Assembly: GCA_963799485.1 (NCBI GenBank)
Contig: CAWCXJ010000009.1
Span: forward strand, 64,001 to 128,000
Length of the DNA: 64,000 nucleotides
Source of the DNA: an uncultured Trueperaceae bacterium
GTDB taxonomy: Bacteria; Deinococcota; Deinococci; Deinococcales; Trueperaceae
Direction: 5' to 3'
Shown here: positions 24,934 to 58,613 of the stretch, in pieces
Layout of the letters: every line of letters starts with the position of its first letter
Numbering within the stretch: the first letter of the stretch is position 1
Program-made: the position numbers and the translations under genes
The notes under the pieces: model-generated
What the model saw: the letters and a program-made list of their open reading frames with translations, nothing else
The model's database searches: none
Told to the model about the DNA's origin: nothing

Positions 24934-25051
24934 GCCGGTCAGTCTAAGGCGGCGTTCGGGTTTTGCGGGTTGCAACGGTAACGTCCCTGGCGTTTTGCGA
25001 GCGTTAAGTATCTCCGTACTAAGAATGAAGGATGGCTTTAGCGCCGAGGAG

Positions 25052-25944
25052 GGTAATGGCTCAAGCACGAATGATGAGTCTACGCTCAAGATTGTAGCAG
25101 TGCAGAAAAAGGTGAAGACAGATGAGGTGCACTAGAACGGGCAACCTTCGGCCAGCCCTCATGGGCCTAGCTCTCTCATCGGACTTGGAGAAGGACAAAG
25201 TTTTACGGACGAAACGGGCCAAGCGTTGCCGGATGGTGTTGTTGCAGCGCTCAACGTGAGCCGTAAGTCCTGAGTCTTTGCCAACTGCTTGATGGTGTTC
25301 GGTGCAGTCTCGCTTTGCTCGGAATAGGAATGACGGTTTGATAGGCTTCCCAGAAGTCGGTGAAGCAGATACCCTGCTTGAACGCATCAGGGATAGATTT
25401 CCAGAGCTGACGACAAGTGGCGACACCTCTGCCACCAACCACGCAAGCTACAACCTGCCGCGTATGCTTGCATAGTGCTAAGCACAGGTTAAGCGCATAG
25501 CGCATTGCATCTGCGATGCTCACCTGTATCCAGCGTTTACGGTTTCTCTGACGTACAAACGACCAAAGTACCCCAAACGAAGTGGCAGGGTACATTTCAT
25601 CGAGTTCTAAATGGATAGTTTCTGAACTGCTGGGCTTAATGAGTGTGCTTGTCAGTGAAGGAAGCGTCTTGGCTTTTTTTAAGCCATTTAGTCAAGGTGT
25701 TTCGAGAGACGCCGAAAGTTCGCGCTATCCCGCGCATACTTGAACGCTCTTGATAAGCCCTGATGATTTCTTTACGCGCTTCGCTGTAGCCGAAGTTCGG
25801 ATTCTCTCTGCTCGCCTTTCCACACCCACGACACTGGTATTTCTGTTTTCCATTGGGCGCTCTTGACAAGCTGTTCGCTACCACAGTAGTAGCACGCGAC
25901 GTTGACCATACCCCTAGCTTATCAGTTCGATTTGAACCATTACC
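25052..25944 (-). mobile_element. IS1-family element, copy A (degenerate)
   Basis: Terminal IRs GGTAATGGCTCAA (25052) and TTGAACCATTACC (ends 25944). InsA motifs NGKQKYQC..C and IARTFGVSRNT..KWL, A7 slippery run at 25674-25680, InsB motifs LELDE..LWSFV, TDFWEAY and [23 protein letters not shown]. Frameshifts and small inserts present. Confidence 0.9.
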
Positions 25945-41002: not shown

Positions 41003-41044
41003 CGGGGTTTTAACTCGGCGTTTTGGAGTAGCTAAGCAAATCAT

Positions 41045-41425
41045 CTTCGGCTCATTGGGTTCGACCGGCGTGTCTCTAGGAGGCGACAGCGTCATGACTC
41101 TCGAGCCATTTGGTCACGGTGTTACGTGACGCCAGCGCCGCGGCTTTGCCGTCCAGCAAACGTGCGTGCCAGACCCCGCAGACTCGAGCGTTCTGCGTAA
41201 GCTCTAAGTATCTCTTATACGCCTCGCTGTAGCCGAAGTCTGGGTTTGCTAATCGCCTTACCGCACGCTCGATACCGACACTTCTGCCGTTAGGCGCTCT
41301 GCCGTTCCCGACAGGCTGTTCGCGCCCGCAGCGGACAGGCCCGGGAGGTGCCGTTTTGTCCAAGACAGCGGTGACATTCGGCCTCGACCATCCCTGAGCT
41401 TATCGGCTTGACCTGAACCATTCCC
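41045..41425 (-). mobile_element. IS1-family remnant, copy B (left end and insA only)
   Basis: Near-identical to 58135-58512; IR variant TGAACCATTCCC. Confidence 0.85.
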
Positions 41426-41543
41426 CTTTACTACCGACTCGAAGTCGGTAGTAATTGAGTACAACTTTAACGAGGGCAAAATTGTGCATTACACTGCTAC
41501 GCGGGACTTTCAGTGTATAAAACCTGTTGCCGGTCAACCCAAC

Positions 41544-57635: not shown

Positions 57636-58512
57636 GGTAATGGCTCAATCACGAATGACAGCCCTACGTTCAAAGCTGTAACGGTGTAAAAAGAGGTGCA
57701 GGCAGATGAGGTGCACTAGAGCGGGCAACCTTCGGTCGGCCCTCATGGGCCTAGTTATCTCGTCGGATTTGGAGAAGGAAAAGGTCTTACGGACAAACCG
57801 CGCAGGCCGCTGCCTGATAGTGTTGTAAAACCGCTCGGTGTGAGCGGTGAGACAGCGTCTTTGCCAACAGCCTGGTGGTGTTCATCAGGGATGACGGCTT
57901 GGTAAGCGTCCCGAAGTCGGTAAAGCAGCTGCCTTGCTTGGAAACCTCAGGAATAGCTTGCCATAAGTAACGACAGGTTGCGACGCCTCTACCTCCAACA
58001 ACACAGACAACTACTTGCCGGGTGTGCTTGCAGAGCGCCAACCAAATCCAGCGTTTGTTGCTCTTGCAGCGTACAAACGACCAGAGTGCCCCAAACGAAG
58101 TGGCAAGGTACATTTCGGCTAGTTCCAGGCAGACCGTCTTCGGCTCATTGGGTTGCGTGTCTTTAGGAGGCGGCAGCGTCATGACTCTCGAGCCATTTGG
58201 TCACGGTGTTACGTGACGCCAGCGCCGCGGCTTTGCCGTCCAGCAAACGTGCGTGCCAGACCCCGCAGACTCGAGCGCTTCTGGTAAGCTCTAGGTATCT
58301 CTTACACGCCTCGCTGTAGCCGAAGTCTGGGTTTGCTAATCGCCTTACCGCACGCTCGATACCGACACTTCTGCCGTTAGGCGCTCTGCCGTTCCCGACA
58401 AGCTGTTCGCGCCCGCAGCGGACAGGCCCGGGAGGTGCCGTTTTGTTCAAGACAGGGATAGCACTTAACGCTAACTATCCCTTAGCTTATCGGCTTGACG
58501 TGAACCATTCCC
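57636..58512 (-). mobile_element. IS1-family element, copy C (degenerate)
   Basis: IRs GGTAATGGCTCAA (57636) and TGAACCATTCCC (ends 58512). InsA/InsB motifs with frameshifts; homologous to copies A and B. Confidence 0.9.
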
Positions 58513-58613
58513 CTTTTGCAAGATGTCTATACAAAACCGCCCAAAAACCACAGCAGAAACCGGGGTTGGCCTTCCCCGGGTTTTTATGCTGTTGTGTTCG
58601 GGGTGGTCATCGT

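Follow-up and report, generated by a model that had tools for sequence, protein, structure and literature searches.

Ultra-small, apparently mobile DNA families accumulated in dead IS1 elements of a Deinococcales genome

The window, which is the whole stretch of 64,000 nt that was analysed (C9:64001-128000 of a 3.66 Mb genome, G000), contains two full-length, decayed IS1-family copies, A and C, together with one partial copy. Copy A has decayed through frameshifts and four inserts, and copy C bears inserts ii and iii, a 36+1-nt insert v and a further insert of 22 nt. The features are as follows.

25052..25944, minus strand: IS1-family copy A, recognised by its terminal repeats (25052 and 25937-25944), DDE_Tnp_IS1 and HTH matches, and alignment to intact copies
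25132..25173, minus strand: insert iii, 42 nt (family 37-42 nt), closing stem and two hairpins
25299..25324, minus strand: insert iv, about 26 nt in place of 4 nt (a frameshifting net gain of 22), from an alignment gap
25485..25526, minus strand: insert i, 42 nt, flanks A ^ T, with a closing stem and two hairpins that make up a three-way junction
25566..25592, plus strand: insert ii, 27 nt, a stem bearing a mini-hairpin with GNA loop, placed in frame within the catalytic motif D-E-M/W-S-F
41036..41426, minus strand: partial IS1 copy, 92% like copy C, from alignment
57636..58513, minus strand: IS1-family copy C, decayed, from alignment to A, termini and domain matches
57716..57757, minus strand: insert iii in copy C, matching that of A at 37 of 42 bases
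58084..58110, plus strand: insert ii in copy C, from alignment to A
58220..58241, plus strand: 22-nt insert in InsA of copy C, from an alignment gap
58418..58454, plus strand: insert v in InsA of copy C, 36 nt and one extra A (net 37)

Boundaries were drawn from alignments of A with C, of the 13 IS1-like loci of the genome, and of 30 distinct InsB stretches including those of relatives. The sister copies show clean gaps of 42 nt for i, 27 nt for ii, 42 nt for iii and a net 22 nt for iv, in agreement with the four discrete inserts that a first-pass annotation had described in copy A, and the alignment likewise places iii of copy C at 57716-57757, as that annotation had it. Insert ii had been correctly seen in both copies but at intervals (25569-25595 and 58087-58113) that are out of register by three bases: the nearest empty copies read D-E-M/W-S, and five host contexts share the same 27-mer ends in the register 25566-25592. 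For iv the net gain of 22 nt stands and the extent becomes about 26 nt in place of 4 nt. The original inventory of copy C was right about ii and iii and passed over the 36+1-nt and 22-nt inserts, both of which recur in the partial copy (v at 41331-41367, the 22-nt insert at about 41133-41154). The 22-nt insert of copy C resembles a 27-nt double-mini-hairpin family and, with a profile score of 10.6 against a reversed-genome maximum of 10.7, is treated as a candidate member only.

A contig from another sequencing run is identical to positions 25165-25315 over 151 nt. In a diverged contig from another run (weak evidence, being a single low-depth contig) 25480 is joined to 25660 by 110 letters, 69 fewer than in the window, which equals i plus ii. 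The 48 bases to the left of copy A (25004-25051) match two other genome sites, C4:38699 and C6:496051, suggesting that copy A inserted into another repeat or next to one.

Scanning the genome at 30% mismatches gave four matches for insert iii and eight for v, compared with 0-1 for shuffled queries, and only self-matches for i and iv. Insert ii has six genome matches with at most two mismatches, and its extra matches at eight mismatches are no better than those of shuffles. Profile searches, counted above the reversed-genome maximum and with the seeds included, returned 3 matches for i (a gain of two diverged relatives), 6 for ii, 8 for iii, 4 for iv and 17 for v (11 at 16 bits or more), as well as 17 for the 27-nt double-mini-hairpin family and 2 for a 39-nt family. 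Across all DNA examined, i, ii, iii and iv occupy 10, 5, 14 and 4 distinct host-site clusters, and 196 full-length matches of v resolve into 62. The host genes include those for IS1, IS3, IS5, IS630, IS982, IS701, IS6-type and IS200 transposases.

The suggestion made at first pass, that one lineage may carry several ultra-small mobile families, is thus borne out for i, ii, iii and v, each of which is dispersed at unrelated sites with precise empty counterparts. Three objections raised with it fell away: inserts i, ii and iii are not confined to IS1 and occur in IS3-, IS5-, IS630-, IS982-type and other hosts; the inserts are missing from intact IS1 relatives and so are not ancestral IS1 sequence; and the identity of ii, iii and iv to the adjacent stretch is only 0.22-0.30, contrary to flank duplication. 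The inserts are very probably real mobile elements, that is, copies of several non-coding, non-autonomous DNA families of 26-42 nt that accumulated serially in dead IS1. Insert iv is the least clear of them. Its 16-nt core pattern is common to two other copies in the genome and six copies in 3 of 10 relatives (the reversed pattern gave one match in those 10 relatives), it differs from these core-sharing copies in its tail, and its junction loses 4 nt; it is probably, if tentatively, a diverged member of a 27-nt family. An iv profile match in a topoisomerase gene was dropped as chance.

A chain search of the genome's repeats yielded 28 indels of at least 15 nt, five of them tandem duplications and most of the others structured inserts. 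Candidates vii, x, xi and xiv, for which the direction of the indel was not polarised, were left out of the family count, and candidate ix (C7:19271) was rejected, as it is a normal IS630 helix-turn-helix whose other allele carries a deletion. Further single- or few-copy indels of 21-39 nt, likewise unpolarised, lie in IS remnants (the C9:157420 region, C7:19863, C6:714215, C6:536670 and C7:482830). An insert of about 39 nt with a three-way junction splits an IS200 tnpA gene (L307:1040-1085, equivalent to C1:25340-25385), and at four loci an iii-type element holds a 24-nt unit that in turn holds a unit of roughly 27 nt:

C1:273865, C13:443386, C13:448438 and C12:29363 (L218, L229, L230 and L231 of G000, respectively): three-level nests

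The distribution of the families is patchy. In a sample of 363 genomes of the order, some of them incomplete, a degenerate v pattern with two mismatches was found in 16 genomes at 1 to 74 copies, and the reversed pattern in none. Besides the host genome, the carriers comprise 4 of 127 genomes of the host family, 10 of 125 in family f2 and 1 of 19 in f5, with 0 of 23 in f3 and 0 of 68 in f4, and they include near-complete genomes of the Deinococcus family. The genome with 74 copies (G234) has many of them in repeats; G198, G228, G140 and G168 also hold multiple copies. A search for the exact v pattern recovered 14 stretches from 185,579 genomes, each with Truepera, Deinococcus, Deinococcaceae or Deinococcales in its title and none outside Deinococcales, and 103 stretches from metagenomes. 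A half-pattern of i matched 9 of the same 363 sampled genomes, one of them (G025) by chance because the match lies within an open frame and the second half is absent, and another (G053) an unpublished genome that supports nothing else here; the ii pattern matched 3 of 128 genomes, again a sample with incomplete members. A strict 39-letter iii pattern found the host genome alone among 101 genomes because it is too strict for the short form, which BLAST and profiles found in relatives. Viral contigs searched with the i and v patterns gave no match, and plasmids searched with i, iii and v gave nothing convincing, the only match spanning most of a query being a Deinococcus plasmid at E 2.

The compact hairpins noted at first pass are not evident from folding energy and are supported by covariation. 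None of the five inserts on either strand reached z < -2 relative to shuffles (best -1.61 as DNA, -1.79 as RNA). Among 44 distinct v sequences, collected with search patterns that left positions 4, 5, 29 and 30 free, pairs 4:30 and 5:29 covary (Fisher p 6e-6 and 3e-9), and the control pair 5:30 does not (p 0.2). The loop is GNNA in 39 of the 44, 15 of these having T or C in third place and so not GNRA. On one strand of v, G-T wobbles outnumber A-C by 16 to 6, which mildly favours that strand as the folded one. In insert i, 96% of cells in the three-way junction are paired and four pairs show two-sided change, a result equalled by 2 of 500 shuffles in a test of seven sequences that ignores their relatedness. 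The mini-stem AC..GT of ii alternates with GC..GC around a loop of GAA, GCA or GTA, and GNA loops are present at 5 of 5 ii sites and 7 of 10 i sites. Loops of both types, GNA and GNNA, are stable in DNA. The loops on the opposite strands are rich in T, and the loops appear to fit DNA better than RNA. Judged by eye, i, iii, the 39-nt family and the insert in the IS200 tnpA gene have in common a closing stem plus two hairpins. A pseudoknot considered for v, between bases 23-26 and 33-36, is disrupted in common variants, and Rfam contributed no family, only a single chance match at E 2.1.

Inserts i, ii, iii and v each have fixed ends, many unrelated sites with empty counterparts, a fold preserved through compensatory change, and very short target motifs, and each goes in facing either way and nests within its own family or within others. 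Their junctions slide by 0-1 base only, and there is therefore no target duplication. The net length of v is either 36 or 37, the longer form ending with an added A; sites with G as left base include seven without the extra A and four with it, and sites with C one and three, respectively, so that the same target occurs with both forms and the A is not duplicated from it. A purine directly follows v at 59 of 62 site clusters. The downstream target also resembles GCGG, with 2.39 of four bases matched against 1.65 in purine-matched controls (0 of 2000), and again 2.21 against 1.60 (0 of 2000) in a larger set without tandem or nested copies; across 83 sites the downstream bases are G at 64, C at 38, G at 36 and a purine at 68. 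The commonest v junction is A^G, or C^T on the other strand (29 of 83), with T^G, G^G and C^G together accounting for 35. These target and extra-A rules are derived from v alone, and the flank preferences of i, ii and iii differ from it, the left flank being A at 10 of 10 i sites and 5 of 5 ii sites. Pairing between v and its target as a guide failed its test: v copies with A4 have A at target position +4 in 0 of 12 cases versus 24 of 71 for the others.

Family v also lands in and beside itself. Among 184 contexts there are 35 tandem ones and 14 in which v is nested in the element's own loop; one nest is three deep and one array has five copies. At the 60 sites with a testable frame, v adjoins a transposase family at 26, another family at 7 and nothing at 27; one copy sits within an open RmlD-like gene without breaking its frame, and others lie in heptamer arrays (L113, L139 and L212) or in larger intergenic repeats.

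We consider the best overall explanation to be families of single-stranded DNA moved in trans by an HUH-type cut-and-join reaction, with a probability of about 0.42. That the route runs at the level of DNA and through a single strand we think likely. The unit would move as folded single-stranded DNA. An enzyme acting in trans would obtain it from a single-stranded donor by cutting or copying, probably in the form of a small circle, and would then join it into a target with a few bases similar to those at the end of the element itself. In the case of v, the downstream target would look like the element's first bases GC(G)R, and because of this likeness v would land beside and inside itself and re-hit conserved transposase codons; its other end would be defined less strictly, so that one extra A is present in some forms and absent from others. 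Copies would persist mainly in IS genes because these tolerate and carry them. As to the enzyme, an HUH/Y1 nuclease of the IS200/IS605-RAYT superfamily is a tentative guess by analogy, this being known chemistry for hairpin-bearing single strands that leaves no target duplication. Two accounts describe the superfamily as recognising hairpins, leaving no target duplication, using short targets defined by their bases and passing through circular intermediates (PMC6006769, PMC3479197), and HUH-type cut-and-join was chosen because these properties match and because A^G is the commonest v junction.

The first-pass annotation had proposed a trans-acting mobiliser, with HUH/Y1 and reverse-transcriptase genes as places to look; both screens were run and name no candidate. 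Y1 transposases occur in 9 of 15 v carriers and 5 of 19 non-carriers, genomes that as kin are not independent, and IS richness alone could produce such an association. Three of the six carriers where Y1 is absent are fragmented, the other three being near-complete with one v copy each, and G004 carries ii without Y1. The host genome has Y1 only as IS200-type TnpA (5 full-length and 2 broken) and no RAYT-like protein. At 50 loci scanned, IS200/IS605 ends contain no element-like hairpin, inserts lying only within tnpA. Clustering of 1,932 reading frames around copies brought up only host transposases and orthologous neighbours as recurrent, GIY-YIG is uninformative at 40 of 40 genomes, and no circle or excision read was seen in the low-depth contigs of the sequencing runs.

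A rather unlikely competitor is copying-in by host DNA polymerase during break repair, with no dedicated enzyme, in which a broken 3' end anneals to the first bases of an element by microhomology of 1-4 nt, is extended to the element's far end, gains one untemplated purine and is rejoined. It would account for the resemblance of the downstream target to the element's first bases, for the lack of an element-linked gene family beside copies, and for locus L095, where a copy begins with the bases of the target and not those of the element. The optional extra A fits a polymerase better than HUH-type cut-and-join, and in a filled/empty pair of IS1 copies of the genome, 99.6% identical with a 36-nt gap and three mismatches in 806 columns, the base after the insert is one of those three. 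Copying-in does not explain why the far end is fixed in over 180 contexts or why conserved folds show compensatory change, and polymerases are universal whereas presence is patchy (16 of 363 genomes). Ku, moreover, was found in none of the six genomes of the genus.

It is improbable that the inserts are merely passengers, with a few old events followed by inheritance in IS lineages, occasional precise loss or short-patch gene conversion between IS copies, and only the IS moving now in this genome. The bias towards IS suits this idea: 40 of 59 listed copies in the genome are within 150 nt of transposase-like sequence, compared with 2.4% of random positions, a figure to be read with an incomplete library, a list that takes in copies of one IS, and seeds that were found in IS. 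Insert-bearing IS have also multiplied. In G001 an IS5-type element (L380:1490-2440) has ii just after a slippery run, producing a stop in the second frame, and exists as seven copies at different sites with 0-1 differences; four empty relatives in the same genome (73% identity, same terminal repeats) could move it in trans. Inheritance of this kind explains spread and not origin, given the 62 unrelated v sites, the heptamer-repeat hosts and the self-nesting, and it sits poorly with hosts other than IS (7 of 60 v sites and the RmlD-like frame).

The recurrence of inserts at one codon bears on the same question. Insert ii occupies a single site in six IS1 copies whose third positions are 35-62% different, i is found at the same IS1 codon in G055, and v at one Arg-Gln/Arg site in seven rows over deep branches. 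Two of the ii hosts have open InsA and InsB, with nine extra residues within the first catalytic motif:

C6:713340-714147 (L020, G000): open-frame IS1 copy with ii
C7:470134-470852 (L018, G000): open-frame IS1 copy with ii

Between two open-frame ii hosts, 56 of 111 synonymous codons differ outside the insert and 0 of 9 inside it (p about 0.002), and as close as 4-6 nt to the junction the bases are those of the host lineage. Identity of ii where half of the synonymous sites have changed speaks against passengers, and repeated insertion at conserved targets appears the simplest reading. The IS1 tree needs three changes for ii, as few as in 61 of 500 shuffles, and its well-supported branches would be formally compatible with a single origin of ii followed by losses.

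An RNA-mediated route, also proposed at first pass, has structured RNAs reverse-spliced or reverse-transcribed, or mini-introns of a transposase message, and we regard it as very improbable. An extra A suits reverse transcriptases, the G-T excess in v and the transposase frames that remain open despite an insert point the same way, and 3 of the 15 v carriers tested have RVT_1. It was not found in the other 12, single-contig genomes among them. The orientation of v at 26 transposase sites, 13 sense to 13 antisense, and that of ii, antisense in IS1 yet sense in its IS5-type host, also disfavour RNA, as do loops better suited to DNA and the lack of an Rfam family. An origin by assembly error, by local duplication or by template switching on the flanks, for which the five tandem duplications and the imprecise iv junction could be adduced, is a nearly negligible explanation overall and is refuted for i, ii, iii and v, as these sequences recur in other genomes at unrelated loci and in the 103 metagenome stretches, and the contig of another run skips exactly i plus ii.

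Movement of single-stranded units by a trans-acting enzyme could also be read more broadly, as a general and as yet undescribed transposition system in which one enzyme of unrecognised family serves many families of folded single-stranded DNA of 24-42 nt. We hold this to be doubtful. If true, end-mimicking targets would explain self-nesting, arrays and repeated codon hits, the elements would be a parasite of, or a brake on, insertion sequences, and a common mechanism would lie behind cyanobacterial SDRs and Deinococcus mosaic repeats.

To our knowledge, how DNA of under 50 bases moves has been an open question since the small dispersed repeats (SDRs) of cyanobacteria were described. We state with high confidence that the Deinococcales harbour several ultra-small mobile DNA families of an SDR-like kind, in another phylum. 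They contribute filled and empty sites by the dozen, a target preference that can be measured, end heterogeneity and a distribution patchy enough to make the mechanism testable, and are short enough for synthetic oligonucleotides. Proteins gain 9-14 new amino acids from the elements, which have repeatedly struck active-site codons of transposases.

SDRs comprise several unrelated tiny families per lineage, 21-27 nt long, with precise insertion, compensatory change, and nesting both in themselves and in heptamer repeats. Eight of them, SDR1-8 of the Nostocaceae, were reportedly described by Elhai et al. in 2008 (volume 18 of Genome Research, page 1484). The present elements share the dispersed tiny unit with precise empty sites and, in v, nesting in itself and in heptamer repeats. 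Inserts ii and iv fit the SDR length whereas i, iii and v are 36-42 nt long, the host belongs to the Deinococcales and not the cyanobacteria, and three-way and long-stem forms, concentration in IS genes, same-codon recurrence and the optional extra A set them apart. In behaviour the elements resemble SDRs, from which length and lineage separate them. The genome shows two further resemblances to cyanobacteria. Its intergenic heptamer arrays (GCAATGA phase), with 26 dispersed members often in inverted pairs (e.g., C13:106741-106807 and C4:66685-66729), recall cyanobacterial heptamer repeats, and the palindromic octamer GCTCGAGC, present 1,755 times at 7.4 times the second-order Markov expectation and first among 256 palindromic octamers, appears to be a HIP1-like signal outside cyanobacteria. 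This octamer does not occur in a text that also cites SDRs (PMC4390886), and another source reports no SDR-like repeat outside the Nostocaceae among HIP1-rich cyanobacteria (PMC5861425). A literature search that covered few subscription journals returned no description of the insert families themselves.

REP/REPIN sequences are imperfect hairpins of 20-40 nt with presumed single-strand processing by a RAYT (TnpA-REP), grouped into GTAG- and CGTC-tagged families, some of them in frame within genes (PMC3733652, PMC6006769, PMC3479197, PMC3116915). The inserts resemble them in hairpin size and presumed single-strand processing. REPs have a guide tetranucleotide 5' of the hairpin foot; on its other strand v starts with (C/T)GTC, and NTAG lies next to a hairpin in iii, with none evident in i and ii. 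REP/RAYT systems cleave at a C-T dinucleotide; A^G, or C^T on the other strand, is the most frequent single junction of v (29 of 83), but T^G, G^G and C^G together make up 35. Unlike REPs, they occur in a host genome without a RAYT gene and with no shared non-IS family beside copies, at low copy number (2-17 profile matches per family), mostly in IS genes and not as inverted doublets, and the stem of 8-9 bp and the CCA tail described for CGTC families are absent from v. Deinococcus has no occurrence in PMC3733652. The PATEs/SMRs of Haloquadratum are transposase-free, without target duplication and often within other mobile elements, and a terminal-only PATE of 52 bp may be mobile (PMC3119063). 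Like them, our elements make no target duplication, and ii and v have no terminal inverted repeats; at 26-42 nt they are shorter than PATEs (52-110), their hairpins are unrelated to resident IS200/IS605 ends, and in place of a fixed 4-6 nt target v has a loose GC(G)R preference. From MITEs, which share terminal inverted repeats with a transposon and duplicate their target, they differ in the absence of target duplication, i having only a closing stem of 5-6 bp, and from retroelements and introns in the scarcity of RVT_1 among carriers and the balanced host orientation.

Closest in lineage are the mosaic SNRs of Deinococcus radiodurans, which belongs to the same order. These are described as longer intergenic mosaics (PMC1978522), and are set apart by that description, which presents mosaics and not single mobile modules with empty sites. 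In genomes of family f2, v likewise lies within larger intergenic repeats (L234-L299), the core of which resembles family iv. The mosaic SNRs of Deinococcus may have been built up in this way, by units of this kind inserting one after another.
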